Below are positions 67-26,001 of a stretch of 64,000 nucleotides of DNA, one piece after another (position 1 is the stretch's first letter; each line of letters starts with the position of its first letter). The stretch spans positions 64,577-128,576 of the forward strand of contig DASQIK010000016.1 in NCBI GenBank assembly GCA_035631615.1, given 5' to 3'. The position numbers and the translations under genes were made by a program. The notes beneath the pieces were generated by a model that searched no databases, had not been told where the DNA came from, and saw only the letters and a program-made list of their open reading frames with translations. Source of the DNA: Candidatus Dormiibacterota bacterium (lineage in GTDB: Bacteria > Chloroflexota > Limnocylindria > Limnocylindrales > CSP1-4).

Positions 67-1470
67 GTGAACATCCTCCAGGTCAGTGCGTCCGACGGCG
101 GCGGTGGCGCCCACAAGATCGCGCTGGCGCTCCAGATGGGGCTCCGAGAGCGGGGTCATGGCTCCTGGATGGCCGTCGGGCGCCGGACGGTGGAGAACCC
201 GAACCTGTACCAGATCCCATCAGGCATTGCGCCTGGCCCGACGCGAGCTGTCTACGAAGCGGCGGCGCTGGCGCTCACGCCGCTTGTCGGGCGCGTGCGC
301 GGCGCCAGGCGCGCCCGGCTGGCGCTGCGTTCGGCCCATCCGCTCGAATACGCCCGCGCCCGCTGGTCGGGACGCGAGTACTTCGACTACCCGGGGAGCC
401 GCCGGATTCTCGAGATCCCACCGGCGAGGCCGGACGTGGTGCATCTCCACAACCTGCACACCGAGTACTTCGACCTCCGATCGCTCGCCGACCTGAGCAG
501 CACGGTGCCCGTCGCGCTGACCCTCCACGATGAGTGGACGTATACGGGTCACTGCGCCTACGGCATCGAGTGCGAGCGCTGGCGCGTCGGCTGCGGTGCC
601 TGCCCGGACCTGACCATCTACCCGTCCGTGCGCCGTGACGCGACCCACGAGAACTGGCTGGCCAAGCGCGCGATCTACGAGCAGAGCCGCCTGTATGTCA
701 GCGCGCCTTCGAGCTGGCTCCTCGACCGTGCCCGCGAATCCGTGCTGGCAACAGCCGCCGCAGACTGGCGCCTCATCCCCAATGGCGTGGACCTGCGCGT
801 CTTCCGGCCCGCCGAGAAGGCGCACGCCCGGGAGCTCCTTGGGCTGCCGCAGCAGCCACTCATCCTGCTGTTCGCCGCCAATCGGGCTCGCGCGAACCGG
901 TTCAAGGATTACGCGACGATCGCAGCGGCCACCGATCTGGTGGCGGCAGGACTGCGCAATCGCAACCTGCTGCTCATCGCCCTCGGCGGGGAAGGCCCGC
1001 CGCAGTTCCTTGCGAACGGCGAGCTCCGGGCGATGCCCTGGGAGCACGAGCCGGCACGCGTTGCGGCGTTCTACCAGGCGGCAGACGTCTATCTCCACGC
1101 TGCGAATGCAGACACGTTTCCGACGACCGTCCTGGAGGCGCTGGCCACCGGCACACCGGTCGTCGCCACGGCGGTGGGCGGCATCGATGAACAGGTCAGG
1201 AGCCTGGCCGGGGCCCCGGGTGCGTGGTCGGGTGCCGCGTTCGATGCCGATGTGGCGACGGGCGTCCTCGTGCCCCCGCACGATGCCGCAGGCATGGCTG
1301 CTGCGACGATCGCGTTGCTGGCCAACGACGCGCTGCGCGCGCAGCTCGGCGCGAATGCGGTGCGGGACGCGGCGACTCGGTTCGGGCTCGCCGGTCAGCT
1401 TGACGCGACGCTCGCCTGGTATGCCGACATCACGCGCGACTGGCGCGCGTGGCGCGCGACCTCCTCCTAG
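67..1470 (+). CDS. Glycosyltransferase, GT-B fold (GT4-like)
   Basis: 467-aa ORF with GTG start at 67. C-terminal 'FPTTVLEALATGTPVVATAVGGIDEQV' is the GT4/GT1 nucleotide-sugar binding region. Third codon positions are strongly G/C. Confidence 0.8.
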   Translation: MNILQVSASDGGGGAHKIALALQMGLRERGHGSWMAVGRRTVENPNLYQIPSGIAPGPTRAVYEAAALALTPLVGRVRGARRARLALRSAHPLEYARARWSGREYFDYPGSRRILEIPPARPDVVHLHNLHTEYFDLRSLADLSSTVPVALTLHDEWTYTGHCAYGIECERWRVGCGACPDLTIYPSVRRDATHENWLAKRAIYEQSRLYVSAPSSWLLDRARESVLATAAADWRLIPNGVDLRVFRPAEKAHARELLGLPQQPLILLFAANRARANRFKDYATIAAATDLVAAGLRNRNLLLIALGGEGPPQFLANGELRAMPWEHEPARVAAFYQAADVYLHAANADTFPTTVLEALATGTPVVATAVGGIDEQVRSLAGAPGAWSGAAFDADVATGVLVPPHDAAGMAAATIALLANDALRAQLGANAVRDAATRFGLAGQLDATLAWYADITRDWRAWRATSS

Positions 1471-3557
1471 CGAGGCAGCGCAGCGTCCAGCCGTGAGGTG
1501 AGCGCGGCCACGAACGGCCGGGTCAGGTGGTTCGTGTCCGCGTACACGACGTATCTGCCGATGATCGCGGGGCACGGGTCAGATGGGCAGGCCCACGCGG
1601 CGGCGTCGACGAACGTCGCTCCCGCCCCGGTGGCCGCCGCTCGTTCAGCGACGAGCCAGGCAGGATCAAGGGCAACGTCGCGCTGCAACGCACATCGGAT
1701 CACGTGATCCGCGTACCTGCTCAGGCAGTCAGCCGGGTCCCACGGCACCTGCGGCGTGTCGGCGATGACCACGACGCTGGCGCCGGTAGCCCGGAGGTCC
1801 GCCAGCGTCCGGGCTGCAGCCCCCTGCATCGCCGTGGTCGCTGCGCCGCCGGCGAGCACGACCCCGCCGACGATTGGCGGGGCGCGGTGATTGGCGGAGA
1901 CGATGACCATCGCCGGTCGGTCCGCGGCGATGCGGGCCAATGCCGTGCTCCGCCACGCGTCGCACACGGTCTTGGGACCGGAGACGCTCACGGTCGTGAC
2001 GTCGGCGTAGGTACAGCTGGTCTTGACGAGGACGACCACTTTCCAGTCGCGCTCGCGCGCGATCGACTCCACCGCGGGCCACCACTGGAGGACGTGCGAA
2101 TCGCCGAAGAGCACGACCTCGGTCTTCGAGGCCCGGTCGCCGAACGTGCACGGTCCATTGACCGTGCCCGAGGTCTGCAGCGAGCACGCCTCGGTGAACG
2201 GATTCTCGATGATCGTGCCCGCGTGCAGGTTCAGGAGCGAGGGCGTGGCATCGACCGGCAGCGGGCCATCCTGGGTGGGCCCGGTCGCCGGGATCAGGCC
2301 GGCGAGCGGGTCGCCACTGGGCGGCACCGCGGCCGCCGCCGCCGACGGTTCGAACCGGCGCACGGCGAACAGGCCGCCGCCCAGCGAGACGGCAACGAGG
2401 AGCACGGAGGCGATCAGGGCCGTCGCCAGATTCCTTGACGGTCGTCGCCCGATCAGCCGGCCGCGTCGCAGCGGATCCTCCACCCACCGGTACGTGATCG
2501 CCGCGAGCGGCACCGTCAGCCCGATGGCCACCGCGCCCTGGAGGCCGTCCGGGATCACGCCCTGGAGCGCGATCGCCCCGAAGACCAGCACCGGCCAATG
2601 CCACAGGTACAGCGAATATGAGATGCGGCCCACGTAGCGAAGCGGCGGCAGTGCGAGAACCCGGGCGGACCAGGAGCCGCCCGCACCCGCGCGGCCGGCA
2701 CCTTGGCCACCCGCGCCCGTGCCGCCCGCGATGACGAGCACGCTGCCCACGACCGGGACGAGCGCGGCGACACCCGGGAACGACGTCGACGACCCGAACG
2801 CCACCGCCGAGATCGCGATCATGGCCAGCCCAGCCGCGCCCGCAAGGTGGGCGGCGGCCAGGGGCATCGCCCGCAGTCGCGGCGCGCCCATCGCGAGCAG
2901 CGCCCCGGCCCCGAGCTCCCAGGCCCTCGTCGGCAGGAGGTAGAACGCGGCGTTCGCATGGCCGGGCGTGAAGACCACGGACAGCGCGACGGAAACGGCG
3001 ACAGCCAGGGCGACCAGCAGGGACATGCGCGGGCCGTGCCGTGCGGCGAGTCGATGCGCGACCAGCAGGAACGCCGGCCAGACGACGTAGAACTGCTCCT
3101 CGACACCGAGCGACCAGTAGTGGATGACGGGCGAGACGCGCGCAGGGTGGAAGTAGTCGGCGGTATCGCGTGCGAACACGATGTTCGGAACGTACGCGGC
3201 AGACGCGGCGATGTCGCGAACCGCGTGCCACAGGCCGATCGGCGAGAAGAACACGACGCACGCCACGAGCGTCACGACGAGCACCAGGAACGAAGCCGGA
3301 AGGATCCGGCGAGCCCGCCGCGCGTAGAACGCTCGAAGGTCAATCGTGCCGGACTGGCCGAGCTCCCTTGCGAGCAGTCCCGTGATCAGAAACCCGGAGA
3401 TCACGAAGAACACGTCGACGCCGACGTAGCCGCCTGGGACCGCGGACCAGCCCGCGTGGTAGAGCAGGATCAGGACCACCGCGACAGCCCGCAGGCCATC
3501 GATGTCGGGCCGATAGTCGAGAGCGCTCGCGCCCTCGGCAGGCGCTCCGGCGGTCAT
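1467..3557 (-). CDS. Acyltransferase family 3 membrane protein with C-terminal SGNH-like domain (OafA/YrhL-like glycan O-acyltransferase)
   Basis: ORF 1467..3644 trimmed to ATG 3557, which forms an ATGA overlap with the stop of the upstream gene. Carries the 'YRPDIDGLRAVAVVLILLYHAG' acyltransferase-3 signature and about 10 hydrophobic segments. Soluble C-terminal domain contains 'VVLFGDSHVLQWW'. Confidence 0.8.
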   Translation of the reverse strand: MTAGAPAEGASALDYRPDIDGLRAVAVVLILLYHAGWSAVPGGYVGVDVFFVISGFLITGLLARELGQSGTIDLRAFYARRARRILPASFLVLVVTLVACVVFFSPIGLWHAVRDIAASAAYVPNIVFARDTADYFHPARVSPVIHYWSLGVEEQFYVVWPAFLLVAHRLAARHGPRMSLLVALAVAVSVALSVVFTPGHANAAFYLLPTRAWELGAGALLAMGAPRLRAMPLAAAHLAGAAGLAMIAISAVAFGSSTSFPGVAALVPVVGSVLVIAGGTGAGGQGAGRAGAGGSWSARVLALPPLRYVGRISYSLYLWHWPVLVFGAIALQGVIPDGLQGAVAIGLTVPLAAITYRWVEDPLRRGRLIGRRPSRNLATALIASVLLVAVSLGGGLFAVRRFEPSAAAAAVPPSGDPLAGLIPATGPTQDGPLPVDATPSLLNLHAGTIIENPFTEACSLQTSGTVNGPCTFGDRASKTEVVLFGDSHVLQWWPAVESIARERDWKVVVLVKTSCTYADVTTVSVSGPKTVCDAWRSTALARIAADRPAMVIVSANHRAPPIVGGVVLAGGAATTAMQGAAARTLADLRATGASVVVIADTPQVPWDPADCLSRYADHVIRCALQRDVALDPAWLVAERAAATGAGATFVDAAAWACPSDPCPAIIGRYVVYADTNHLTRPFVAALTSRLDAALPR

Positions 3558-4540
3558 TCGGCCGATCGAAGGCCGCGGTGTCGCTCGAGGTCTGCGTCGA
3601 CCATCATCCCGATGAGCTGCTCGAATGACACATCCTGCCGCCACCCGAGCTCGGTCCTCGCGCGCGTCGAGTCACCAACGAGCCGGAATGTCTCTGCCGG
3701 CCGGACGAAGTTTGGATCGATCACGACGTACCGCTCGTAATCCAGCCCGACATGCGCAAAGGCGGTCCGGACGAGGTCCAGGACGGTGTGCGCAACGCCG
3801 GACGAGATGATGTAGTCGCGCGGTGTCTCCTGCTGCAGCATCAGACACATCGCCCGCACGTAATCACCGGCGAACCCCCAATCGCGAACCGCGTCGAGGC
3901 TTCCCATCTGCAGCGAATCCGCGAGGCCGAGCGAGATCCGGGCGACGCCGTCGCTGACCTTCCGGCTCACGAACTCGAGCCCGCGCCGGGGCGACTCGTG
4001 GTTGTACAGGATGCCGCACACCGCGAACAGGCCCATGCCCTCCCGGGCGTTGACGGTGCTGAAGTGTCCGAATGCCTTCGCCGCCCCGTAGGGATTCCGA
4101 GGATTGAGCGGCGTCGTCTCGGTCTGCGGCGTCTCCCGCGCGTTGCCGAAGATTTCGCTCGAAGAGGCCTGGTAGAAGCGGATCGTCGGGTCCGTGGTCC
4201 GGATTGCCTCGAGCAGTCTCGGCGCCGCCAGCCCGGTGACCTCGCCCAGGAGATCCGGCCGGTCCCACGATGTCGGGACGAAGCTGTGGCCGGCCAGGTT
4301 GTAGACCTCACCGGGCCGCACTGCGCCGAGAACAGCGGCGATGTCGGCCTCGTCGAGGAGGTCCACGTCCACGAGCTCGATCCGATCGAGCAGGTGCCGG
4401 ATCCGCTCCGGGACCGCGGTGCCTCGGCGCACGCCGACGACCCGGTAGCCCTGGCCGAGCAGGTGTTCGGCCAGGTACGAGCCGTCCTGACCACCGATCC
4501 CGGTGATGAGGGCGGTTCGACGCTCCTCGTTGTGCGGCAT
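3554..4540 (-). CDS. GDP-mannose 4,6-dehydratase family protein (short paralogue)
   Basis: 328 aa. '[19 protein letters not shown]', 'YQASSSEIFG', 'NPYGAAK', '[10 protein letters not shown]' and 'RDWGFAGDYV' are Gmd hallmarks. Clearly paralogous to the longer gmd at 7914..8945. Confidence 0.8.
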   Translation of the reverse strand: MPHNEERRTALITGIGGQDGSYLAEHLLGQGYRVVGVRRGTAVPERIRHLLDRIELVDVDLLDEADIAAVLGAVRPGEVYNLAGHSFVPTSWDRPDLLGEVTGLAAPRLLEAIRTTDPTIRFYQASSSEIFGNARETPQTETTPLNPRNPYGAAKAFGHFSTVNAREGMGLFAVCGILYNHESPRRGLEFVSRKVSDGVARISLGLADSLQMGSLDAVRDWGFAGDYVRAMCLMLQQETPRDYIISSGVAHTVLDLVRTAFAHVGLDYERYVVIDPNFVRPAETFRLVGDSTRARTELGWRQDVSFEQLIGMMVDADLERHRGLRSAE

Positions 4541-4543: not shown

Positions 4544-5851
4544 TCAGACCAGCGGCTCTGCGGCGAGCAGCTTGATCTCGCTCCCGTCCAGCCGGCGACC
4601 GCCGAGGCGCCGATAGTGCGCGCGCAGCGTCAGCGCCGTCGTCCGCCAGTCGAACTGGCGGAACCGGGCCCGGCCACGTTCGGCGAGCTCGGTCCGGAGA
4701 TTGGCGTCCGTCCACAGCCGTTCGATCGCCGACGCGATGGCGGCCGGGTCCAGCGGGTCGAACACCAGCGCGGCGTCTCCCACGAGAGCGGGCAGGGACG
4801 TCACGTTGGAGCACGCAACCGGGAGACCGGACCAGAAGGCCTCCACGATCGGCAGCCCCCAGCCCTCATAGAGCGTGGGGAAGATGAGGCAGGTGGCGCG
4901 TCGGTAGACGAGTTGGATCTCCGCGGGGCTGAGGAACCCGAGGAACCGGACCTGACCGTCGATGCCGAGCTCGTGAGCGAGCTCTACGAGCCGCGCGTAG
5001 CGCTGATTCCGGTGGCCCGAGCAGATGAGCGGCACGTCGATCCCGCGGCGTCGCAGCTGGCCGAGTGCATCGAGCAGGCGCTCGTGGTTCTTGTGGCCCC
5101 ACGTCTGCGCGGGGTAGAACGCGTAGCGATCCGGAAGGTCGAGACGGGCGGCGATCGCACGCTCCTCGTCTGCCGTCGGGACGGGATACGCCTCCGTGAC
5201 GGGCGGCGGATTCACCACGGCGATGCGCTCCGGTGCGAGGCCGTAGCTCGCGACGAGATCGTCCTTCACCCAGCGCGTCGCAACCACGATCAGTGAGGCC
5301 TGCGCGCAGAACCGGCGATACGTCGCGTCCCGATCCCGAAGGACCTCCGGATCGAAGAACTCGGGCAGGTGGACGTGCTGGAGGTCCCACGGCTGGTAGA
5401 TGTTCGGCAGCGCGGTCGATGAGGCGGAGGGTCTCGTGAAGTGCACGATGTCCGCGCGGACGGTCCGCATCGTCCGATCGAACGGGGACGGCAGCCGCCA
5501 GCCCGCGCTGCGGGCCATGCTGCGCCAGACGCTCCGCGCGAAGCGGCGGGCGCGTGCGGACGTCGTTTCGATCCCGCGTCGCATCGGAGCGCTGGATGCC
5601 CCCGCCGTCGACGAGGTCGCCCCGGGCATGGCGGGCTGGACCACCAGGCTCGACCGTCCCTTGAGATACGGGCGCAACCATTCGCCCTGTCCCTCGTTGA
5701 CCAGGAAGAGGTACTCCTCGGTCTCGTCGTCCAGGCCGGACAGCGCCGCCGCAAGGCCGATGACCCATTGTTGGACGCCACCGCTCCCGACGCCCATCCG
5801 CGCATCGATCACCACCCGGAGCGGCCGGCGTCTCCGATGGATGTCGAGCAA
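4544..5851 (-). CDS. Glycosyltransferase, GT-B fold (GT4-like)
   Basis: 'EGWGLPIVEAFWSGLPVACSNVTSLPALVGDAALVFDP' matches the GT4 C-terminal domain. The ORF runs to 6019 but that would overlap fcl. Start placed at TTG 5851, 2 nt after the fcl stop; ATG 5797 is the alternative. Confidence 0.7.
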   Translation of the reverse strand: MLDIHRRRRPLRVVIDARMGVGSGGVQQWVIGLAAALSGLDDETEEYLFLVNEGQGEWLRPYLKGRSSLVVQPAMPGATSSTAGASSAPMRRGIETTSARARRFARSVWRSMARSAGWRLPSPFDRTMRTVRADIVHFTRPSASSTALPNIYQPWDLQHVHLPEFFDPEVLRDRDATYRRFCAQASLIVVATRWVKDDLVASYGLAPERIAVVNPPPVTEAYPVPTADEERAIAARLDLPDRYAFYPAQTWGHKNHERLLDALGQLRRRGIDVPLICSGHRNQRYARLVELAHELGIDGQVRFLGFLSPAEIQLVYRRATCLIFPTLYEGWGLPIVEAFWSGLPVACSNVTSLPALVGDAALVFDPLDPAAIASAIERLWTDANLRTELAERGRARFRQFDWRTTALTLRAHYRRLGGRRLDGSEIKLLAAEPLV

Positions 5852-5852
5852 G

Positions 5853-7913
<2,061 letters not shown>

Positions 7914-7917
<4 letters not shown>

Positions 7918-8945
7918 GGTTTGCTGGTGGCCACCGCCGGCGCGCGCATGACCGTCGCCGGGTCGATCCCGGCCTCGCGCAGGTCTGCCTCGAGCATCAG
8001 CCAGACGAGGCCGTGGAACGTCGTCCGGGGCTCCCAGCCGAGCACGCGCTCGGCCTTGGAGGCGTCGCCGCGCAGGGCGTCGACCTCGGTCGCGCGGAAG
8101 TAGCGCTGGTCGATGCGGACGTGGTCCTGCCAGTCGAGCCCGACCAGGCTGAAGGCGACCTCGACGAGCTCCTGGACCGAGTGCGTCTCGCCGGTCGCGA
8201 TCACGTAGTCGTCCGGCGAGTCCTGCTGGACGATCCGCCACATCGCCTCGACGTACTCCTTGGCGTAGCCCCAGTCACGGCGCGCCTCGAGGTTGCCCAT
8301 GTACAGGTGTTGCTCCTGGCCGCCGATGATCGAGGCGATGCCGCGGGTGACCTTGCGCGTCACGAAGGTGCCGCCGCGGCGCGGCGATTCGTGGTTGAAC
8401 AGGATCCCGTTCGAGGCGTGCATGCTGTACGCGTCGCGGTACTGGATGGTCATCCAGTGGGCGAAGACCTTCGCGATCGCGTATGGGCTGCGCGGGTGGA
8501 AGGGCGTCGTCTCGGACTGCGGCGGCGGCGTGCTGCCGAACATCTCGCTCGACCCGGCCTGGTAGAACCGGATCGGCGAGTCGACGGAGCGGATCGCCTC
8601 GAGCAGTCGCAGCGTGCCCATGCCCGCACTGTCCGCGGTGAACTCGGGGACCTCGAAGCTGACCTTGACGTGGCTCTGGGCGCCCAGGTTGTAGACCTCG
8701 TCGGGCTTGATCCGGTGGAGGTGCGAGAACAGCGACGACGGATCGGTCAGGTCTGCGTAGTGCAGGAAGAGCCGCGTCTCGTGTTCGTGAGGGTCCTTGT
8801 AGAGGTGGTCGATACGGCCCGTCGTGAACGAGCTCGAGCGGCGGATCAGGCCGTGGACCTCGTAGCCCTTCTCGAGCAGGAGCTCGGCGAGATACGAGCC
8901 GTCCTGGCCGGTGATCCCGGTGATCAGTGCCTTTCGGGTGGTCAT
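7914..8945 (-). CDS. gmd: GDP-mannose 4,6-dehydratase
   Basis: '[44 protein letters not shown]', '[10 protein letters not shown]', 'SPYAIAK' and '[10 protein letters not shown]' are canonical Gmd motifs. Confidence 0.9.
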
Positions 8946-8960
8946 GTCGGCCGATTGTAG

Positions 8961-11442: not shown

Positions 11443-11503
11443 GACGCGGCATCGTGGGGGGATGCCTCCGGATAGGCAAGCCTCGGCCGGTACACTCCCG
11501 GCG

Positions 11504-13523: not shown

Positions 13524-13524
13524 T

Positions 13525-16622: not shown

Positions 16623-16652
16623 TCGGCCCAGTCCGTCTGCGACAATCCGGCC

Positions 16653-17951: not shown

Positions 17952-18621
17952 AGTTGCTCTGGCCGGCGGTCCGGTCGCGCCACGTCGTCGGGAGCTCGGC
18001 GACCCTCCGATGCGCGAGCGTCGCCTTGACCGTGAGCTCGAGCGCCAGCTCGAAGCCGGCCGTGCTTTCGATCGAGACCGACTCGAGGAAGCGGCGGCTG
18101 TAGAGCTTGAAGTTGTTCGTCGGGTCGTGGGTGGGGACACGCGCGAACCAGTGGAGCGAGAGCCCCGCCGCGCGGCTCATGAGTCGCTTCAGGGGTGGAC
18201 CGCCGATCTGGCGGCCGCCCTTCATGTAGCGCGACGCCGAGACGACGTCGACGCCGCCCTTCGCAAGCGCGACCATCCGATCGACCGCACGCGGGTCGTC
18301 CGACCCGTCCGCCATCGAGATCAGCACGTACGGCGCGGTCGTTCCGGCGATGCCCGCCTTCATCGCGTTGAGGACGCCGCGACCGAGGTCGTTGCGCAGT
18401 CCGCGGAGGCCCGGGATCTCCGGCGCAAGCCGAGCGACGACCGGGACCGTCGTGTCGCCGTCGAAGTCGTAGACGACGACCAGCTCGTGCGGCGTGGTGA
18501 CCGCACCCGAGAGCGCCCGCAGGACCGGCTCGACCGCCTCGCCCTCGTTGTAGACCGGCAGGATGATTGCGAGCTCGGGCGCGCCCGGCACCGCGGGGGC
18601 GCCGGCCACCTGGTCGCTCAC
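17887..18621 (-). CDS. GT2 glycosyltransferase, polyprenyl-phosphate sugar synthase-like
   Basis: GTG 18621 forms a GTGA overlap with the epimerase stop. 'LAIILPVYNEGEAVEPVL', 'VVVYDFDGDTT' and 'ISMADGSDDP' are GT2 motifs. The 3' end overlaps the convergent gene by 65 nt. Confidence 0.8.
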   Translation of the reverse strand: MSDQVAGAPAVPGAPELAIILPVYNEGEAVEPVLRALSGAVTTPHELVVVYDFDGDTTVPVVARLAPEIPGLRGLRNDLGRGVLNAMKAGIAGTTAPYVLISMADGSDDPRAVDRMVALAKGGVDVVSASRYMKGGRQIGGPPLKRLMSRAAGLSLHWFARVPTHDPTNNFKLYSRRFLESVSIESTAGFELALELTVKATLAHRRVAELPTTWRDRTAGQSNFKLRKWLPHYLHWYRVAFLRR

Positions 18622-19643
18622 AGGCCCCCCGCGGCGAGCTCCGCGCGGATCCAGGGGATGACCTCGTCGAGCATCGTGTCGAGAGTCGTCGTCGCCTCGA
18701 AGCCGAGGACCTCGCGCGCCTTGCGGACGTCCGGGACGCGGCGCTGCACGTCGTGCTCGAACGGCGGATCGGTGACGTAGCGGAACGGCGGCCCGTCGGG
18801 CCCGTGGACCTTGCGCCAGATCAGCTCGGCGAGCTCGAGCACCGTTGTCGATGCGGCGGTCGACAGGTTGAAGTCGTCGTCGATCGCGTTCGGCGACTCC
18901 ATCGCGAGCCGGATCCCGTGCGCCAGGTCGCCGCCGTAGGTGTAGTGGCGGACCTGGTTGCCCTCGCCGAGGATGTGCAGCGGGTCCTGGCCCTGGAGCG
19001 CCTTGAGCGCGAGGTCCGGCACGACGTGGGACAGGGCGAGCTTGACATTGCCGCTCATGACGTCGGTGTCGCGCAGCGCCCGGCGCTCGCCGATGCCCAC
19101 GCAGTTGAAAGGCCGGACGATCGTGTACGGCAGGTGGAATTGTTCCGCGGCGCCCTTTGCGAAGTACTCGGCGGCGAGCTTCTGGAAGCCGTACGTCGAG
19201 ACGGGCGGCGGCGAGGTCAGCTGGGCGCCCTCCGGGGTCGGGAAGACGGTCGCCGACTCGTACACCATGGACGAGCTCATCACGACGATGCGCTCGAGCG
19301 TGCCACGACGGTGGGCCGCGATCGCAGCGTCGAATGTCGCGGCGAGGATGCGCTCGTTCTCGGCCAGCAGGTCGTAGGCGAACTCGTGGAAGTAGCTGAT
19401 CCCGCCGATCATCGCCGCGCTGGCCACGACCTGGTCGCACTCTCGTGCCAGCTCGGTGAGCAGCGCGACGTCCTTGGCGTCGCCCTCGACGAAGCGATAC
19501 CGCGGGTGCGCGTCGTACGACTTGGCGACGCGCCCGTACTTGCTGAAGTTGTCGATGCCGACGACCTCGTGCCCCGCCTCGAGCAGCTCCGGCACGAGGT
19601 AGCCGCAGATGAACCCGGCGGCGCCGGTGACCAGGATTCGCAT
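18618..19643 (-). CDS. NAD-dependent nucleotide-sugar epimerase/dehydratase (SDR)
   Basis: 'MRILVTGAAGFICGYLVPELLEAGHEVVGIDNFSKYG' Rossmann motif and 'YGFQKLAAE' YxxxK. Start at ATG 19643 inside ORF 18618..19916. Confidence 0.85.
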   Translation of the reverse strand: MRILVTGAAGFICGYLVPELLEAGHEVVGIDNFSKYGRVAKSYDAHPRYRFVEGDAKDVALLTELARECDQVVASAAMIGGISYFHEFAYDLLAENERILAATFDAAIAAHRRGTLERIVVMSSSMVYESATVFPTPEGAQLTSPPPVSTYGFQKLAAEYFAKGAAEQFHLPYTIVRPFNCVGIGERRALRDTDVMSGNVKLALSHVVPDLALKALQGQDPLHILGEGNQVRHYTYGGDLAHGIRLAMESPNAIDDDFNLSTAASTTVLELAELIWRKVHGPDGPPFRYVTDPPFEHDVQRRVPDVRKAREVLGFEATTTLDTMLDEVIPWIRAELAAGGL

Positions 19644-20563
19644 CAGGCGAGGCTCGTTTTCATCGCGGTGGCGGCGATGCCGGTCGCGCCGGGGGCCGGT
19701 GTACCGCCCGACCGCTCGAACGCCTTCGAGGCCGGGCGAATCCCTCGCTCCAGCCATGGTGGGAGGGCACGCCGGCGCTCGATCAATGTGAGGACCGCGA
19801 GCCCCACGACACTGGCGAGCGTCAGGCCGGGGACCGGCAGCGCCCAGAGCACGGCGAGCACCGCTGGCATGACCGGGATCGACATGACCTTGTAGATCGG
19901 CTGCGCGTACGGCCACAGCACCGGCACGGCGAGCCAGAGGGCGCGGCGCGGGCCGAGCGCGGCGAGCGCGATCACCGCGATGGCCATGAGGAGCGGCGCG
20001 CCGTAGGTCGAGTCACCGACGTTCTGGCGCGCCAGGTTGGCGCCGATCCCGGGCAGCTCGTCAAGGAACCGCGCCCAGGGCAGGAAGAGGATGGTCGCCG
20101 CGGTCGCGGCCGCAGCCACGACCAGCGCGGTCATGCGCCGTTCGGCGAGGAGTGGCAGGGCCGCGTACGGCTTCACGAGCACGGCGAGGCCCGCCATGGG
20201 AGCGGCGAATCGCGCCTTCGCATCCCGCCCGACGACGAGCAGGCCGAGCACGAGCACCTCCGGATGCCCGAGCACGATCGCCTCGAACAATGGCGGAAAC
20301 GCCAGCCAGTACGCGGGCAGGCCGAGACGTCTGATCGCCCAGATCGAGATCGCGAGGTCGATGCCGACCCACCCGAACCGCGTGAATTCGTGAGGGAGGA
20401 AGGCGAACGGCGCGAATGGCAGGAGCATCGTCGGTGGCCCGGCGAAGATCGCCAGTGGTGGCCCGACCTGCCACGGATCGGCGCCGGTCAGCCAGGCACG
20501 CGCCGCGTCCGAGTAGATGACGGCATGCGAGCCGAGGATCCCAGGCGCCAGGACGATCACCAC
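19643..20563 (-). CDS. Short polytopic membrane protein, GT-C/GT87-like (paralogue of 10489..11442)
   Basis: 'VIYSDAARAWLTGADPWQV', 'GPPTMLLPFAPFAFLP', 'LPAYWLAFPP' and 'VPVLWPYAQPIY'. The frame stays open upstream of GTG 20563 and encodes a further helix ('WDLALAITFAIGSAWSV'). The real start may therefore be as far as CTG 20647, a CTGA overlap with the upstream stop. Confidence 0.55.
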   Translation of the reverse strand: MVIVLAPGILGSHAVIYSDAARAWLTGADPWQVGPPLAIFAGPPTMLLPFAPFAFLPHEFTRFGWVGIDLAISIWAIRRLGLPAYWLAFPPLFEAIVLGHPEVLVLGLLVVGRDAKARFAAPMAGLAVLVKPYAALPLLAERRMTALVVAAAATAATILFLPWARFLDELPGIGANLARQNVGDSTYGAPLLMAIAVIALAALGPRRALWLAVPVLWPYAQPIYKVMSIPVMPAVLAVLWALPVPGLTLASVVGLAVLTLIERRRALPPWLERGIRPASKAFERSGGTPAPGATGIAATAMKTSLA

Positions 20564-20643
20564 GACCGACCAGGCGCTGCCGATCGCGAAGGTGATCGCC
20601 AGTGCGAGGTCCCATGACAGCCGAGGACGGAGTGCGGTGCCGA

Positions 20644-21843
20644 TCAGAGCCGGATCCCTCCGCCGAGCGCGCCCCAGACGTCGACGACGTCCTTGCCGCC
20701 AAGTTCGAGGCCCTTGTACGGCTTATGGGGCGCGCCGAGGATCAGGATGTCGCTCTCGCTGACGACCTGCTCCAGCGGGATCAGGCGATCGTCGATCACG
20801 TACGGGTCGGTGCACAGCACCCGCGCGCCGGCCCAGGTGAGCAGCTTGCGCACCTTGTACGACAACGACGCGCGCGTGTCGTCCGACTCGGCCTTGAACG
20901 CCATGCCGAGGATCCCGATCGTCTTGCCCTGGAGCGATTCGTAGCGACGCTGGAGCGCCGACACGATGTACGCGGGGAGGCCCTCGTTGACCTGCATCGC
21001 GGCCTGGCCCATCGGGAAGTGGTCGGTCGTGAAGGCGGAGAGCTGCATCGTGTCCTTGAACAGGCACGGTCCCGCGGCGAAGCCCGGGCTGGGCAGGTCG
21101 CGGGCCCGCGGGTAATCCTCGCGGATCGCCTGGAGCACGTTGGTGTAGTCCACGCCGGCTTGGTCCGCGATCATGAGGAACTGGTTCGCGACCGCGAATT
21201 TCAGGTAGCGCCACGTGTTCGTGAACAGCTTCGCGAGCTCGGCCTCCTTCGACGACGTTCGGATCGTCTTGGAGCCGAGGCGCGTGAACAGCTCCGCGGC
21301 GCGCAGCGCGGCGCGATCATCGTCGGCGCCGACGATCTGGGGCAGCGTGTGCAGCTCCTCGAGCGCGTAGCCCTCGGCGATCCGCTCCGGGCAGAACGCC
21401 ACGTCGACCGTGCAGCCACGTTCGGCAAGCTGCTGCCCCACGTAGACCGTCGTGCCCGGATAGACGGTGCTCCGCAGAACCACGAGTGCTCCCTCGCGGA
21501 GATGCGGCGCGATCTCGGACACGGTGCGCTCGAAGATCGTCATCGATGGCCCGTGGAATTCGTCCACCGGCGTTCCGACGACGACCACGACGCGGTCCGT
21601 CCGCTGCAGCATCCGCGGGTCGCTGTCGAACGTGAGCCGGCCGGTGGCGAGGACCTCGGGGAGCAGCTTGTCGGCGCCCGACTCACGGAACGGCATCGAG
21701 CCGCCGGCGATGCGCTCGATGGTCGACTTGTTGATGTCGTAGATGCCGACTCGCCACCCCGTCTCGGCAAACGCGAGGCTCAGGGGCAGGCCGACATGGC
21801 CGCCGCCGCCGAGCACGACGAGATCGAGATCCGACTCCAGCAT
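20644..21843 (-). CDS. Nucleotide-sugar 6-dehydrogenase (UDP-glucose/GDP-mannose dehydrogenase family)
   Basis: 'DLVVLGGGGHVGLPLSLAFAETGWRVGIYDIN' N-terminal Rossmann fold and the catalytic-Cys region 'GFAAGPCLFKDT'. The track ORF extends to 22728 but that part is a low-complexity off-target extension. Start set at ATG 21843. Confidence 0.85.
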   Translation of the reverse strand: MLESDLDLVVLGGGGHVGLPLSLAFAETGWRVGIYDINKSTIERIAGGSMPFRESGADKLLPEVLATGRLTFDSDPRMLQRTDRVVVVVGTPVDEFHGPSMTIFERTVSEIAPHLREGALVVLRSTVYPGTTVYVGQQLAERGCTVDVAFCPERIAEGYALEELHTLPQIVGADDDRAALRAAELFTRLGSKTIRTSSKEAELAKLFTNTWRYLKFAVANQFLMIADQAGVDYTNVLQAIREDYPRARDLPSPGFAAGPCLFKDTMQLSAFTTDHFPMGQAAMQVNEGLPAYIVSALQRRYESLQGKTIGILGMAFKAESDDTRASLSYKVRKLLTWAGARVLCTDPYVIDDRLIPLEQVVSESDILILGAPHKPYKGLELGGKDVVDVWGALGGGIRL

Positions 21844-21948
21844 CGGGTTGGACTCTAGCAGTTGGGACACGTCGTCGACGATGGCACATAGGTGAGGGCA
21901 GGTGCTGAAAACGCGGGTCTGGACGTGTCCCCCTACTCTGTACGACCC

Positions 21949-22917
21949 GTGACTCGACTGCGAACCTTCACCCGACCCACCGCGTTCCGGACGCTCGATC
22001 GCCTGCTCGCTCGCTTGCCCGAGCCCGTCGAGGCGCGCGTTCGGGATCGGCTCGGCCTCGACCTGTTCGTGGTCGTGGCGGTCGTGGTGGTCGCGCTGCG
22101 GCTGTTCAACCGTACCCCGTGGACGCCGGTCGTGCTCGACATGCACACGTACTGGGCCACGGGAGCGGGAATCAGCTACGTCAATTCGAATCCATACGCG
22201 ATCGGCGCCTACCTCTACGCGCCGGCGTTCGCCCAGCTGCTGTACCCGCTGACCACCCTGCCGTGGCCGTGGTTCGCCGCGCTCTGGACCGCGGCGATCG
22301 CGGCGGTCTACATCTGGCTCGTCGGGCGCTGGGCGTTCCCGATCCTGCTGCTCACGGGGGCGGTCGCGCTCGAGCTGTACCTGGGCCAGATCGACGTGTT
22401 CATCGCGGCGGCGATCGTCATCGGCTTCCGGTACCCGGTCGCGTGGGCCTTCCCGCTGCTGACGAAGGTCGCGCCGGGCATCGGCCTGCTCTGGTTCCTG
22501 TTCCGGCGGGAGTGGCGGAATCTCGCCATCGCGGTGACCGCGACGGTCGCACTGGCGGGTGTCTCGGCGTGGCTCGCGCCGAACCTGTGGCACGAGTGGT
22601 ACGACCTCCTCCGCCGCAGCATCATGGACAGGCAGGTCGTCGAGGGCGCGTACCTGGGCATTCCGGTGTGGCTGCGTCTCCCGTTCGCCGTCGCGATCAT
22701 CTTCTGGGGCGCCCGCACGTCCCGGCACTGGACCGTCCCGGTCGCGGTCCTCCTCGCCATGCCGATCCTCTGGATCAACGTCTTCACCCTGCTCCTCGCG
22801 GCCGTGCCGCTGCGCGAGGAGTTCGGCCTCACGCCCGCACGCGCCTGGCTCCTGCGCGAGCGCCTCCTCCCCGACGCCCTCAAGCCCAAGCCCACGGTGG
22901 CCCCACAGGCCGGCTGA
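21949..22917 (+). CDS. GT87/DUF2029-like polytopic membrane protein
   Basis: 'DMHTYWATGAGISYVNSNPYAIGAYLYAPAFAQLLYPLTTLP' resembles the GT87 first-loop motif. About 9 TM helices. Start uncertain: GTG 21949 chosen, GTG 21892 possible. Confidence 0.6.
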   Translation: MTRLRTFTRPTAFRTLDRLLARLPEPVEARVRDRLGLDLFVVVAVVVVALRLFNRTPWTPVVLDMHTYWATGAGISYVNSNPYAIGAYLYAPAFAQLLYPLTTLPWPWFAALWTAAIAAVYIWLVGRWAFPILLLTGAVALELYLGQIDVFIAAAIVIGFRYPVAWAFPLLTKVAPGIGLLWFLFRREWRNLAIAVTATVALAGVSAWLAPNLWHEWYDLLRRSIMDRQVVEGAYLGIPVWLRLPFAVAIIFWGARTSRHWTVPVAVLLAMPILWINVFTLLLAAVPLREEFGLTPARAWLLRERLLPDALKPKPTVAPQAG

Positions 22918-23300: not shown

Positions 23301-24890
23301 ATGGCAGCCGCGAAGCAGCCCCGAAGCGCGCGCGCTGCCGGCCTGTCGCTCGCCGAGCTGTGGATGTTCCTCGGCGTAGCCCTGCCGACGCTCGCCGCAC
23401 TCCTCGTCCCGATGCCGTCCGTCGACCTGGCGTACCAGCTGCGTGCCGGCGCGGGGATCCTCGCCGGCCACGGCATCCCGGCCACGGACACGTGGACGTT
23501 CACGATCGCCGGCGCGCCGTGGCTCGACCAGCAGTGGGGTGCGCAGGTGCTCCTCGCCGCGGTGTACCAGGCCGCGGGCTGGACCGGCCTTGCCCTGCTT
23601 CGCGCGGCACTCGTCGGCGCCACGTTCTGGCTGGTCATGGCGACGCTTCGATCGATGGGCTGTGCCGCCCGACCGGCCGCGCTCCTGGCGCTCGGCGGCT
23701 TTGTCGTCGCGGCGCCCGCGCTCGCGCTCCGGCCGCAGCTCTTCACGATCGTCCTGTTCGCTGCGGCGCTCGCGATCCTCGCGGACCGTGCCCGGCACCC
23801 GAGACGTCTCCTCCTCCTGCCGCTGATGGCGGTCGCCTGGGCGAACCTCCACGGCAGCTTCCCGCTCATCGTCGTGGTGCTCGGGCTCGGCTGGGCGGAC
23901 GAGATCGGCCGCGTGCTCGTGGCGCGCGCCGCGATCCGACCCGGCCACGGCCCCGGCCGCGCGTCGGCGGCGATCCGCGGCTCGACCGGCCTCGCCCTCC
24001 TCGCGGCCATCTCGGCGCTGGCGACGCTCGCGACCCCGTTCGGCATCGACGCGTGGCGGTACGTCGAGCACCTCGCGGCAGATCCCTCGGTGACGTCCGC
24101 GGTGAGCGAGTGGCGCCCGCCGTCACCAACCGACCCGACCGGCGCGATCTTCTACATCTCGCTGCTGATCGCGGTGGTAATCGTCGTGCTCCGCGTCCGA
24201 GCCGATCGCAACCGCGTCGTGCCGGCGACGTTCGCCCCGATCGCAACGCTCCTGGTATTCGGCGTCCTCGGCGTGGTGACCGCCCGCGGCCTCGCGTGGT
24301 GGGCGCTGGTCCTGCCGATCTCCGCGTCGGCCCTCACCCACGATGGCAGCCTCGCGCGGTTCCTGCCGCGGCGCCTCGGCGTCCTGCGCACGCTGTTCAC
24401 CGGCCCCAGCGTCCAGTCGCTCGCGCGCCAGAACCGACCCTCCCAGCTGAACACGATCGTGGCACTGCTGCTGATCCTCGTCGGCATTGGCCTGCTGCCC
24501 GCCTGGCGCCCGATCGGCCCGGCCGGCGTCCCGACCGGAGTCCTGAGCTATGCGCCCCAGGGCATCGCGGCCAAGCTCGACGCCTACGCCCGCGCGCGCA
24601 TGCCGATCGGCCTGGTCCGTATTTGGGTGCCGCAGTCATGGGGATCGTGGATCGAGTTTGCGGCGCCCGACGCGCTCGTCTCGGTCGACTCGCGCATCGA
24701 GCTGTACCCGCCCGACATCTGGATTTCCATCGGAACGGTCGCCGCGGGAGGACTGCGTTCGACGACGACGCTCAGCAGCTATCACGCGAACGTCGTGGTG
24801 GTACCCGCGGGTCAGGATTTCTCGGGCTCGAGCGCCTGGGCCATGATCTACCAGGACGCCGACGGCTCGATCTGGGCGACTGGGCCTTGA
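23301..24890 (+). CDS. Large polytopic membrane protein (GT-C-like candidate, family not recognised)
   Basis: About 13 hydrophobic helices. Periplasmic-loop-like motif 'VDLAYQLRAGAGILAGHGIPATDTWTFTIAGAPWLDQQWG'. ATG 23301 chosen. In-frame GTGs at 23226 and 23229 inside the repeat element, preceded by GGAAAAGG, are alternative starts. Confidence 0.6.
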   Translation: MAAAKQPRSARAAGLSLAELWMFLGVALPTLAALLVPMPSVDLAYQLRAGAGILAGHGIPATDTWTFTIAGAPWLDQQWGAQVLLAAVYQAAGWTGLALLRAALVGATFWLVMATLRSMGCAARPAALLALGGFVVAAPALALRPQLFTIVLFAAALAILADRARHPRRLLLLPLMAVAWANLHGSFPLIVVVLGLGWADEIGRVLVARAAIRPGHGPGRASAAIRGSTGLALLAAISALATLATPFGIDAWRYVEHLAADPSVTSAVSEWRPPSPTDPTGAIFYISLLIAVVIVVLRVRADRNRVVPATFAPIATLLVFGVLGVVTARGLAWWALVLPISASALTHDGSLARFLPRRLGVLRTLFTGPSVQSLARQNRPSQLNTIVALLLILVGIGLLPAWRPIGPAGVPTGVLSYAPQGIAAKLDAYARARMPIGLVRIWVPQSWGSWIEFAAPDALVSVDSRIELYPPDIWISIGTVAAGGLRSTTTLSSYHANVVVVPAGQDFSGSSAWAMIYQDADGSIWATGP

Positions 24891-24927: not shown

Positions 24928-26001
24928 CTACGGGCGGTAGCTGTGCCAGTAGCGCTCGGCGGCGCCGTTGACCTTGCCGACCGTGCCGATGGCGTTGGCG
25001 AACTGCCGGACGCCCTGGGCCATCGGCTGCTCACCGCCGAAGAGCCGGTCGAGCTGGCTGTCGTACATGGCGATGCCGCGGACCTTGCGCTCGAGCTGAT
25101 CGGAGATGTCCGCGTAGCGCGGGGTGAGGTAGGTGCCCTCGGGGATGCCCTCGAGTGCGGACCTGGGCAGCTCCTCGATCGACTGGAACCCGGTCCACCA
25201 CGCGTACGGAAAGTCCTCGTAGAACACGACCTTGCCCGCCCACTCCGGGCCGGGCATGACCCAGGAGCGAGATTCGGCAAGGAGCGAGACGCCCGCTTCG
25301 CGACACAGCTGGTGATCCACGTGGTTGCCGACCGCGAGCGGGAAGTACACCGACTGCGGCTCGAGCCGGGCGATCTCTCGCCGGAGGATCCCCACCGGCG
25401 CCCTGTCGTCCTCCCGAACCGCACCGAGCAGCTGCTCGTCGCCCTCGTAGCCGCGGAAGACCGCGTCGGCCAGGTCGAGGAACACCACGGACGCCTCGGC
25501 AAAGTACGCGTAGCGCTCGTCCTCGACGCGGCGCCTGGCGACGATCTCGCCGGCCGACGCGGCCTCGAGCAGGTCGTCGGTGTAGAGGGCGCCCTGCGTC
25601 GAGACGTCATCCATGACCGCCTGGCCCGCGAGCGACTTGTTGCGGATGCTCGCCCGGCGGTACCACGAGGCGCGCTGCCAGAACCGCTTGGCGGACGCGT
25701 CGGCGTCGGACTGGGTCGCCTCGAGCCGATCGTCGTCGGCCGACCAGGGCGCGTCGTCGCCGGGCTCGTCGGCGCGGATGCTCGACCGGTTGAACGCCTC
25801 GGTCGCGGGCCACAGCGTCTTCGTCCCGAACCCGAGCGCCTCGCGCTGGTAGGTCGTCAGGCCGCCCGACCCGTTCGTCGCGCTGCCAGAGAAGACGGTC
25901 AGGATCGTGACGTTCTGGCCGAGCTCGCGCAGGCTCGCGATCAGGCCGCCGCACGAGAGTGCGACGTCGTCGGGATGGGGGGCGACGAACACGTGGGCCA
26001 T
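24928..26001 (-). CDS. PIG-L/LmbE family N-acetylglucosaminyl deacetylase with long C-terminal extension
   Basis: 'MAHVFVAPHPDDVALSCGG' (PHPDD zinc motif) and a downstream 'GNHVDH'. Start at ATG 26001 inside ORF 24928..26166. Confidence 0.75.
   Translation of the reverse strand: MAHVFVAPHPDDVALSCGGLIASLRELGQNVTILTVFSGSATNGSGGLTTYQREALGFGTKTLWPATEAFNRSSIRADEPGDDAPWSADDDRLEATQSDADASAKRFWQRASWYRRASIRNKSLAGQAVMDDVSTQGALYTDDLLEAASAGEIVARRRVEDERYAYFAEASVVFLDLADAVFRGYEGDEQLLGAVREDDRAPVGILRREIARLEPQSVYFPLAVGNHVDHQLCREAGVSLLAESRSWVMPGPEWAGKVVFYEDFPYAWWTGFQSIEELPRSALEGIPEGTYLTPRYADISDQLERKVRGIAMYDSQLDRLFGGEQPMAQGVRQFANAIGTVGKVNGAAERYWHSYRP

Follow-up and report, generated by a model that had tools for sequence, protein, structure and literature searches.

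The first 26 kb of a 64,000-nucleotide stretch of contig DASQIK010000016.1 (positions 64,577 to 128,576, forward strand; GenBank assembly GCA_035631615.1, Candidatus Dormiibacterota bacterium, placed in Chloroflexota by GTDB) hold a glycan locus in which eight of 21 genes are of the GT-C glycosyltransferase type. The whole stretch is called the window below, with its first letter as position 1. We propose that this locus is an assembly line, divided between two compartments, for an undescribed envelope glycoconjugate of uncultured Chloroflexota, most likely a membrane-anchored, lipoglycan-like product; we give the proposal about even confidence. By analogy, the pathway is best read as a split-compartment type that depends on polyprenyl-phosphate sugars and would work like the lipomannan/lipoarabinomannan (LM/LAM), Gtr, Rgt and glycosylphosphatidylinositol (GPI) systems, but would belong to none of them. 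The locus combines a core conserved across the lineage with a variable arm and is not a one-off oddity.

A glycan locus rich in GT-C-type proteins

The G+C content of the window is ~70%, and raw lists of open reading frames (ORFs) are crowded with shadow frames. Genes were called by GC3 bias together with a six-frame GC plot, and starts were refined through orthologue lengths and inspection of start codons. The called proteins were scanned with Pfam (gathering cutoff 25 for both GT87, PF09594, and Alg6_Alg8, PF03155) and NCBIfam (equivalog cutoffs 415 for gmd TIGR01472, 500 for GDPFucSynFcl, 189.8 for TIGR03026, 274 for BshA, 462 for MshA and 182 for BshB1). A first-pass annotation, made from the sequence without database searches, had described nearly every gene from 67 to about 26 kb as glycan-related, and the analysis bore this out for 21 of 21 genes between 67 and 26001 (Table 1). 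Neighbouring genes mostly share 1 or 4 nt, or else short gaps separate them. Overlaps of the kind expected for translational coupling were found at 1467/1470, 3554/3557, 7914/7917, 12262/12265, 15402/15405, 18618/18621 and 19643, and probably at 20644/20647. All eight GT-C-type genes lie between 6.8 and 24.9 kb, with none in the other ~38 kb of the window. The first gene at the left edge is a GT4, and this edge may cut the locus.

Table 1. Genes of the glycan locus in the window, with predicted products and supporting matches
Gene	Predicted product	Position	Strand	Evidence
GT4a	Cytoplasmic GT-B glycosyltransferase, variable arm	67-1470	+	Pfam Glycos_transf_1 4e-16, Glyco_trans_1_4 1e-14
AT3-SGNH	Acyltransferase-3 + SGNH fusion, OafA/OafB-type glycan O-acyltransferase	1467-3557	-	Pfam Acyl_transf_3 4.6e-31, SGNH 1.9e-29
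GMD-like	Second GDP-mannose 4,6-dehydratase-like gene	3554-4540	-	Pfam GDP_Man_Dehyd 1e-106
GT4b	Cytoplasmic glycosyltransferase	4544-5851	-	Pfam Glycos_transf_1 1.2e-27
fcl-like	GDP-L-fucose synthase-like 3,5-epimerase/4-reductase	5853-6821	-	Pfam Epimerase 1.4e-53
M1	Orphan 363-aa polytopic protein, predicted GT-C fold	6826-7917	-	AlphaFold2 pLDDT 79.6, pTM 0.84; protein HYK94621.1
gmd	GDP-mannose 4,6-dehydratase	7914-8945	-	NCBIfam TIGR01472 525 bits, over cutoff 415
GT87-A	PimE-family GT-C	9215-10435	+	Pfam GT87 1.8e-30, 106.9 bits; motif YDLSFY
M2	Short (317 aa) GT87-like GT-C	10489-11442	-	No Pfam match; 37% identical to GT87-C (19643), E=7e-33; motif MDAIIY
GT2-A	Short GT2 without transmembrane segment, candidate polyprenyl-phosphate-sugar synthase	11504-12265	+	Pfam Glycos_transf_2 1e-21
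GT87-B	PimE-family GT-C	12262-13368	+	Pfam GT87 5.4e-21, 75.9 bits; motif FDYKAY
GNAT	Acetyltransf_6 (CelD/FemAB-like) GNAT	13990-15405	+	Pfam PF13480 5.4e-27
GT4c	Core cytoplasmic glycosyltransferase	15402-16622	+	Pfam Glyco_trans_1_4 1.6e-42
Alg6_Alg8-like	Alg6_Alg8 (GT57)-like GT-C	16653-17951	+	Pfam PF03155 2.4e-10, 40.4 bits vs cutoff 25
GT2-B	Short GT2 without transmembrane segment, candidate polyprenyl-phosphate-sugar synthase	17887-18621	-	Pfam Glycos_transf_2 2.9e-13
SDR	Extended short-chain dehydrogenase/reductase, nucleotide-sugar 4-epimerase-like	18618-19643	-	Pfam Epimerase 2.9e-38
GT87-C	Short GT87-like GT-C	19643-20647	-	Pfam GT87 1e-10, 42.2 bits
Dehydrogenase	NDP-sugar 6-dehydrogenase	20644-21843	-	NCBIfam TIGR03026 280.6 bits, over cutoff 189.8
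GT87-D	Short PimE-family GT-C	21949-22917	+	Pfam GT87 1.4e-11, 45.1 bits; motif LDMHTY
M3	Orphan 529-aa protein, predicted GT-C fold + C-terminal extracytoplasmic domain	23301-24890	+	AlphaFold2 pLDDT 80.5, pTM 0.84; protein HYK94636.1
PIG-L	PIG-L/LmbE-family de-N-acetylase	24928-26001	-	Pfam PIG-L 1.6e-16

Eight GT-C-type membrane proteins

The first-pass annotation had counted at least seven polytopic GT-C-like proteins plus an unassigned one at 6826, and all eight match GT-C families or folds. Its GT87-like label applies to five of the eight, or six if the GT87-adjacent Alg6_Alg8-like protein at 16653 is counted. In profile-HMM searches, four proteins passed the GT87 cutoff and one that of Alg6_Alg8, while M2 (10489) was assigned through its paralogy to GT87-C (19643). 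Seven of the eight share a conserved Asp in the first outer loop. In PimE, the tip of the first outer-loop helix carries the catalytic Asp, D58, with the Tyr, Y62, at +4, and both residues are essential (PMC12041525). The same D-x3-Y spacing is present in GT87-A, GT87-B, GT87-D and M2, and GT87-C and its seven orthologues carry H-x3-Y, with His at the position of the PimE catalytic Asp. A sequence-only PDB profile search with GT87-A did not reach PimE. The coupling of GT2-A to GT87-B gives indirect support to polyprenyl-phosphate-mannose as a putative GT87 donor.

The first canonical start of GT87-C, GTG 20563, falls inside the first transmembrane segment (TM1) of its orthologues. The frame is open 5′ of this codon, encodes TM1 and contains no ATG, GTG or TTG. 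A CTG at 20647 overlaps the TGA of the dehydrogenase gene, so that translation likely starts at this CTG and is coupled to the dehydrogenase gene.

For the Alg6_Alg8-like protein, the PF03155 match spans profile positions 121-370 of 482, the best PDB profile match is ALG6 (6snh) at only E=0.083, and some orthologues match GT87 instead. D31 after TM1 is invariant. The protein is a GT-C relative and at most a putative member of GT57 (ALG6/ALG8). The 3′ end of its gene convergently overlaps GT2-B by 65 nt, an arrangement also found in two relatives (L003 and L004).

The orphan proteins M1 and M3 have no match in Pfam or NCBIfam. A sequence-only PDB search with the M3 profile gave nothing usable, and the fold of both was therefore taken from structure prediction, with AlphaFold2 models built from homologue alignments and searched against the PDB using Foldseek. 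Such comparison with PimE, Emb and Aft enzymes had been proposed in the first-pass annotation, and the two models indeed matched GT-C enzymes including AftA, PimE and EmbA, with Foldseek probabilities of 0.84-1.00 and TM-scores of 0.36-0.54. For M1, the top 17 PDB hits were all GT-C proteins (among them AftA, ArnT at a TM-score of 0.51, Pmt4, oligosaccharyltransferase (OST), EmbA, AftB, PglB and ALG3; E ~0.02), and so were the top 15 for M3 (STT3, AftA, DPY19, AglB, PglB, ALG12, AftD, ArnT, PimE and ALG3), where STT3 (E=1e-6) and AglB (TM-score 0.54) matched best.

Only 19 homologues of M1 were found; its D51-G52 after TM1 is invariant, D51 across 17 sequences, and its gene is translationally coupled to gmd by a GTGA overlap. 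Clustered at 50% identity, the M3 family counts 18,767 clusters for E<=1e-3 and 9,309 for E<=1e-10. D42 after TM1 does not vary among 32+32 sequences, the most distant of them at 26% identity. Of 32 diverse members, 31 gave no Pfam match, and we found no Pfam model for the family. In profile comparisons, M1 was unrelated to M3 (probability 0.7%) and weakly related to the Alg6_Alg8-like family (44%, E=2e-4). Judged by the predicted structures, M1 and M3 are candidates for two GT-C families that current profile libraries do not capture. One M3-family member, the 909-aa library protein P0372, has an M3-like N-terminal half (40% identity) and a Pfam GT87 match, presumably C-terminal; it could be a natural fusion of two GT-C types or a gene-calling artefact.

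Two candidate polyprenyl-phosphate-sugar synthases and a probable donor module

The locus had been described as containing three GT4 enzymes and two GT2 enzymes of the polyprenyl-phosphate-sugar synthase type. The GT4 enzymes were recovered by Pfam, and the closest solved relatives of the GT2 enzymes are Dol-P-Man synthase (DPMS) and ArnC. Both GT2 proteins are ~250 aa long with no transmembrane segments. The top PDB matches of GT2-A, whose stop codon overlaps the start of GT87-B, were ArnC (8e-12), DPMS (2e-9) and GpgS (4e-9). The sole matches of GT2-B were the DPMS of P. furiosus (5mlz; 4.6e-18, residues 16-239, the full catalytic domain) followed by ArnC. NCBIfam neighbours of the two were Dol-P-hexose transferase, AglJ, PpgS and ArnC, with all equivalog scores far under cutoff. 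Because of these closest solved relatives, a conserved pairing of GT2 with GT-C genes and a minimal operon in one relative, we infer that both are candidate polyprenyl-phosphate-sugar synthases.

This minimal operon (L089, 5941-10673) consists of an M1-like GT-C gene with the dehydrogenase (71% identity), SDR (85%) and GT2-B (77%) genes, amid housekeeping genes. A convergent gene for a 147-aa protein of unknown family with four transmembrane segments adjoins it; this protein is a candidate flippase and has no homologue in the window or the other loci.

The dehydrogenase, SDR and GT2-B genes are probably a portable donor module. PDB neighbours of the dehydrogenase were UDP-Glc dehydrogenase, UDP-ManNAcA dehydrogenase and Cap5O, which leaves its substrate ambiguous between UDP-Glc and UDP-HexNAc. 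The SDR carries SSSMVY and YGFQK motifs but not the Glu on which 4,6-dehydratases and UDP-GlcA decarboxylases rely, and has GalE, UXS1 and UDP-GlcA epimerases as PDB neighbours. A role as a UXS/ArnA-type decarboxylase making a pentose donor is disfavoured, as the motif is SSSMVY and not TSE. Since the Glu of dehydratases and decarboxylases is lacking, oxidation followed by 4-epimerization is the more plausible route, and the donor is probably a polyprenyl-phosphate hexuronic acid.

A conserved core and a swappable arm

To examine synteny, we mapped 25 window proteins onto 49 fetched loci, each at least 15 kb long. Homologues of the Alg6_Alg8-like and M3 proteins came from metagenome-assembled genomes (MAGs) labelled Chloroflexi, Chloroflexota or Candidatus Limnocylindrales, and the closest GTDB species representative was Chloroflexi bacterium UBA5189, with 78-95% identity across the core. 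An actinobacterial origin, to which the 70% G+C and the rplI-dnaB neighbourhood had pointed, was rejected in view of these homologues. We take the source to be an uncultured Chloroflexota-type lineage, Limnocylindria-like or belonging to Dormibacteria, a group that has itself been put forward as a Chloroflexota class (PMC10608941). NCBI gives the names Patescibacteria, Deferrimicrobiaceae or Sulfomarinibacteraceae to three MAGs with the same locus at 42-52% identity (L012, L021 and L038), and the labelling of this soil-MAG series seems unreliable.

Core modules were common to 36 Chloroflexota-type loci among the 49, so that the core is conserved in ~36 species-level MAGs. GT2-A (24 loci) adjoins GT87-B (21 loci), the order GNAT-GT4c-(GT87-D)-M3 occurs in 35-36 loci, and the dehydrogenase, SDR and GT2-B genes form an unbroken block in 27-29 loci, as a rule converging with the Alg6_Alg8-like gene (17 loci). 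The flanks of the core hold genes for PCMT, a DUF5317/MFS protein and an HD-domain protein. This arrangement is not due to chance, because it recurs in many independent MAGs. The remaining 13 loci, from MAGs labelled Actinomycetes, contained only an M3 homologue at 33-38% identity. The first-pass annotation could name no matching pathway, and the synteny search agrees with it: the locus is syntenic only with uncharacterized loci of uncultured MAGs. The suggestion of an undescribed product, either a lipoglycan or a wall polysaccharide, is thus supported.

The GDP-fucose arm (67-11.4 kb) is a variable, swappable cassette, in contrast to the core. Its genes are rare among the 49 loci (gmd, fcl-like and M1 in two each, GT87-A in seven, M2 in four), and GT4a, GT4b, AT3-SGNH and the GMD-like gene were found in none of them. 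The position of the arm is occupied in the 85%-identical relative L003 by GtrA (GtrA_DPMS_TM) and a membrane-anchored GT2, and in the 64%-identical L004 by dTDP-rhamnose genes. Another metagenome contig (L090) keeps the whole arm, in the order gmd (84% identity), M1 (56%), AT3 (59%), fcl-like (84%), GT4b (65%), GMD-like (82%), a second AT3, a sulfotransferase and GT4a (64%). Relatives' loci further add GT-C genes (PMT_2-like, PIG-V-like and M1-like), Sulfatase-superfamily genes, SAM methyltransferases and MFS-spermine-synthase fusions, and five carry LPG_synthase_TM flippase-like genes. Cassette swapping of this kind would diversify the surface structure, much like O-antigen variation.

No initiation or export functions found in the window

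Across the ORFs called in these 64 kb, we detected no Pfam match to phosphoglycosyltransferases (PGT; WecA/WbaP), Wzx, Wzy, ABC exporters, LCP or GtrA, in line with the first-pass annotation, which had seen no Wzx/Wzy, ABC exporter or WecA/WbaP-type enzyme. The inspected loci of relatives likewise contained no PGT, Wzx/Wzy or ABC exporter. Searching the window by tblastn with the L003 GtrA, an LPG_synthase_TM protein (L056) and the four-segment L089 protein returned nothing. Taken together, the searches for these and for the relatives' membrane GT2, Sulfatase, MFS-spermine-synthase fusion and SAM methyltransferase gave M1 as the sole match. The missing export machinery fits a pathway that needs no export of repeat units linked to polyprenyl diphosphate. 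The absence of a PGT and exporter, together with the many GT-C proteins, favours a lipid-anchored, LM- or GPI-like product.

Soluble enzymes of the arm and core

A GDP-fucose module with an extra gmd-like gene, a sugar 6-dehydrogenase and an SDR had been listed at first pass; the genes are all present at or close to the positions given, with gmd over its NCBIfam cutoff and the GMD-like and fcl-like genes under theirs. Because the fcl-like gene scored 288 bits against GDPFucSynFcl (1.2e-85) where the cutoff is 500, a sugar other than fucose is possible, and the arm could supply GDP-fucose or another GDP-6-deoxyhexose. The GMD-like gene scored 338 bits against the NCBIfam gmd model and retains the SSE and YxxxK motifs; its top PDB match was the P. 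aeruginosa GMD (1rpn, 339 bits), as against 110 bits for the reductase Rmd (2pk3). We rejected an assignment as Rmd, which would yield GDP-D-rhamnose, as true GMDs score three times better and the catalytic Glu is kept. A 64%-identical orthologue of GT4a lies in the L090 cassette. The start of GT4b is uncertain (TTG 5851, ATG 5926 or ATG 6019), and the start of AT3-SGNH, ATG 3557, overlaps the stop of the gene upstream.

The modifying enzymes listed at first pass (AT3/SGNH, a CelD-like GNAT and PIG-L) were all found by Pfam. For the GNAT, the gene was confirmed and its start near 14200 was not; it must be 13990, the only canonical start 5′ of the conserved N-terminus. GNAT occurs in 35 of the 49 loci, always together with GT4c, which is present in 36, resembles stp2, BshA and MshA, and scores under every NCBIfam cutoff. 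M3 follows this GNAT-GT4c pair in ~35 loci. PIG-L (33 of 49 loci) retains the HPDD and HxDH metal-site motifs.

Repeats, gene starts and the right flank

The ~620 bp between GT87-B and GNAT (13369-13989) show no coding signal and are filled with degenerate tandem repeats of 20-57 bp; at this place L003 has a gene for a 512-aa FAD-monooxygenase. The N-terminus of the GNAT ORF is of low complexity and contains a 9-bp repeat in 12 copies (14084-14189).

Boxes resembling −10 elements lie 6-9 nt 5′ of the starts of gmd (TACAAT, within 8946-8965), GT2-A (TACACT, 11484-11503), Alg6_Alg8-like (GACAAT, 16633-16652), dehydrogenase (TAGAGT, 21844-21863), GT87-D (TACTCT, 21929-21948) and PIG-L (TATACT, 26002-26021). 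No Shine-Dalgarno sequence is visible at these six starts. This combination suggests that the first genes of operons are transcribed as leaderless mRNAs.

On the right flank, a c-di-GMP-II riboswitch (RF01786) was detected at 31523-31606 on the reverse strand, with 62.5 bits against a gathering score of 53.5. It is preceded by a promoter-like TTGACC-18-TATAGT (31677-31648), ends in a terminator-like hairpin (31535-31512) and lies upstream of an HD_5/MASE9 (HD-GYP-type) gene (31266-29869). Genes for a DUF5317/MFS protein, a Ser/Pro-rich single-pass protein, PCMT and PIG-L follow on the same strand, separated by gaps of 258, 26, 42 and 41 nt. The aptamer was found at the same place in four of six relatives checked (L009, L014, L020 and L034), and may link the right edge of the locus to c-di-GMP signalling. 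The single-pass protein (26767-27453, reverse strand) is small, with an acidic N-terminus, one transmembrane helix and a Ser/Pro/Ala-rich outer tail, and adjoins PCMT in relatives as well; that it is a glycosylation substrate is pure speculation.

The G+C content falls to 64% between 30000 and 34000, as compared with ~70%. A reverse-strand gene at 31707-35192 encodes an AAA/STAND-type ATPase of 1161 aa that bears Trans_reg_C and BTAD domains. The stretch 35281-41035 looks SOS- and replication-related, with genes for a treble-clef zinc-finger protein, dnaB, a LexA-like repressor, DUF1232, rplI and a DinB-type polymerase. These are followed by folD-fhs and hutH/hutU, where long N-terminal extensions of the folD, hutH and hutU ORFs are probably over-called starts.

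Proposed pathway and alternatives

On the cytoplasmic face, the GT4 enzymes (GT4c of the core, GT4a and GT4b of the variable arm) would use nucleotide sugars to build a primer on a lipid acceptor, and the variable arm, through gmd, the GMD-like gene and the fcl-like gene, would supply GDP-fucose or another GDP-6-deoxyhexose. PIG-L and the FemAB/CelD-like GNAT probably remodel a HexNAc amine. The two DPMS/ArnC-like GT2 enzymes would load sugars onto polyprenyl phosphate: GT2-A, coupled to GT87-B, probably makes a polyprenyl-phosphate hexose of the mannose type, and GT2-B, fed by the dehydrogenase and SDR, probably a polyprenyl-phosphate hexuronic acid of the GalA or HexNAcA type. After flipping by a component presumably encoded outside this window, the eight GT-C proteins would transfer the sugars at the outer face, and AT3-SGNH would then O-acylate the glycan outside.

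The first-pass annotation had likened this logic to LM and LAM assembly in Corynebacteriales, and the comparison stands as an analogy of logic, not as homology of pathway. In the system of phosphatidylinositol mannosides (PIM), LM and LAM (PimA/PimB′ GT4, PimE GT87, Ppm1 GT2, MptA/B/C, Emb/Aft), the work is similarly split between cytoplasmic GT4 enzymes acting on a lipid primer, a GT2 synthase and many outer GT-C proteins (PMC12041525, PMC3485146); the GT87 domains share the D-x3-Y motif of PimE, and neither Wzx/Wzy nor a PGT is needed. That system belongs to Actinomycetota, whereas the present locus is found in Chloroflexota-type MAGs and adds a GDP-fucose arm, a second donor fed by the dehydrogenase and epimerase, PIG-L, GNAT and two candidate GT-C families absent from Pfam. 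We saw no Mpt, Emb or Aft-family Pfam matches and no phosphatidylinositol or inositol genes in the window. The mycobacterial PIM-LM-LAM genes are scattered, whereas here all are clustered.

Three-component systems consist of a polyprenyl-phosphate-sugar synthase, a flippase and a GT-C transferase (GtrB/GtrA/Gtr*; CsbB/GtcA/YfhO; PPRS/MATE/GT136) (PMC11127046). The locus resembles them in its two conserved synthase/GT-C pairs and in the GtrA gene of a close relative's locus, but the window lacks a flippase gene, the GT2 proteins lack the C-terminal transmembrane helices of GtrB and ArnC, and eight GT-C and three GT4 proteins stand with no backbone pathway alongside. In the Rgt system of Rhizobium (Exo5/LpsL, RgtE, RgtA-D/F), RgtE serves as a bactoprenyl-phosphate-GalA synthase for galacturonosylation (PMC7663294). 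As in Rgt and in the Arn pathway (Ugd-ArnA-ArnC-ArnT), a 6-dehydrogenase, an SDR and a GT2 would feed a GT-C, and both GT2 proteins have ArnC as one of their closest solved relatives. There is no aminotransferase or formyltransferase here, so that the sugar is not Ara4N, the SDR is epimerase-like and not an ArnA-type decarboxylase, and the GT-C partners are Alg6_Alg8-like, short GT87 and M1 proteins. Acceptors of Rgt and Arn are lipid A and lipopolysaccharide core, which are not expected in a Chloroflexota monoderm. With eukaryotic/archaeal GPI and ER-lumenal N-glycan synthesis (PIG-A, PIG-L, DPM1, PIG-M/V/B, ALG6/8), the locus shares the joint presence of a GT4, a PIG-L-family de-N-acetylase, a DPM1-like GT2 and multiple GT-C proteins; the window has the Alg6_Alg8 match, relatives have PIG-V and PMT_2 matches, and a Sulfatase-superfamily membrane gene in some relatives could be ethanolamine-phosphate-transferase-like. 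This similarity is at the family level, far below orthology, and the window shows no signs of a transamidase, inositol lipid or ethanolamine phosphate; PIG-L-family enzymes, moreover, have many other substrates.

Several points weigh against the lipoglycan-like assembly line. The window has no flippase (GtrA, SMR, MATE or LPG_synthase_TM), and no lipid-anchor genes (phosphatidylinositol synthase or a PatA-type acyltransferase) were seen. GT87-C carries His where the catalytic Asp would stand, GT2-A by sequence also resembles GT2 enzymes with soluble acceptors such as GpgS, the dehydrogenase and the SDR could each act on more than one substrate, and the TM-scores behind the predicted folds are modest (0.45-0.54). 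The locus may extend leftwards, and that part, or another region of the genome, could hold a PGT, an LCP ligase or an exporter. The 80 listed relatives are without exception MAGs of uncultured organisms.

One alternative is that the locus decorates a backbone, for example a peptidoglycan-linked secondary wall polysaccharide, that is made and exported elsewhere, and that its genes form Gtr-like side-chain systems with subsequent O-acylation. We regard this as possible, though rather unlikely. Each GT2 has a conserved GT-C partner, AT3-SGNH is a typical post-polymerization modifier, a PGT and an exporter are missing from the window, three-component systems are widely distributed (PMC11127046), and flippase-like genes do occur in relatives, namely GtrA_DPMS_TM in the 85%-identical one and LPG_synthase_TM in five. 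Three GT4 enzymes, a GDP-fucose supply, GNAT and a deacetylase are, however, cytoplasmic builders, eight GT-C proteins far exceed any described decoration system, and a core kept as a unit with GT4c, GNAT and PIG-L in ~35 species looks self-contained. General protein O- or N-glycosylation, in which STT3/Pmt-like GT-C proteins, M3 especially, would pass the glycan or sugars to S-layer or membrane proteins, seems to us improbable. The acceptors of GT87 and ALG6-like enzymes are glycolipids or lipid-linked glycans, we found no PGT that would start a polyprenyl-diphosphate oligosaccharide, and no WWDYG-type motif was identified. The best structural matches of M3 are, it is true, oligosaccharyltransferase subunits (STT3, AglB and PglB), and M3 has a conserved C-terminal extracytoplasmic domain, while the Ser/Pro/Ala-rich single-pass protein is conserved beside the locus; but a Foldseek rank at TM-scores of ~0.45-0.54 cannot separate acceptor types, and AftA, ArnT, DPY19 and ALG12 score alike.

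That the genes lie together by chance or for reasons of regulation and serve separate functions, for instance GT4c, PIG-L and GNAT a mycothiol- or bacillithiol-like low-molecular-weight thiol or a small glycoside, beside membrane glycosyltransferases unrelated to them, we consider highly improbable, as tight overlaps and whole-block synteny across ~35 species argue for one pathway. The thiol version draws on the resemblance of GT4c to BshA (1e-38) and MshA and of PIG-L to BshB1 (5e-9), with a GNAT present as in MshD. We rejected it on scores and gene order: GT4c reached 133 bits against the cutoff of 274 for BshA and 89 against 462 for MshA, and PIG-L 36 against 182; the window has no Cys ligase (MshC or BshC), the GNAT is of the Acetyltransf_6/FemAB type and not MshD, and GT4c and GNAT are invariably followed by M3, not by PIG-L.

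Implications

To our knowledge, Limnocylindria/Dormibacteria-type Chloroflexota are abundant soil bacteria without cultured members, and their envelope biochemistry has not been studied; a literature search returned nothing on this locus or on GT87 or other GT-C proteins in Chloroflexota. The assembly-line reading can be taken further, to a version that we offer as speculative and would not call likely: a class-level lineage of Chloroflexota would make a GPI/lipomannan-like lipoglycan, with a GlcN anchor primed by GT4 and PIG-L, two lipid-linked donors of which one is a polyprenyl-phosphate uronic acid, and two new GT-C families, next to a flanking operon under a c-di-GMP-II riboswitch.

Under the lipoglycan-like reading, the locus would be the conserved gene set for a major surface glycoconjugate of the lineage, and the strategy of mycobacterial LM/LAM, which combines lipid-phosphate sugars with many GT-C enzymes, would occur outside Actinomycetota and in clustered form. 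The locus also offers two new candidate GT-C families, one of them very large and lacking a Pfam model; the M3 family, with more than 9,000 clusters, would, if true, found a new CAZy family. The dehydrogenase-epimerase-GT2 trio is a testable candidate for a new pathway to a lipid-linked uronic-acid donor, and the clustering of the genes makes heterologous reconstruction feasible even without a culture.

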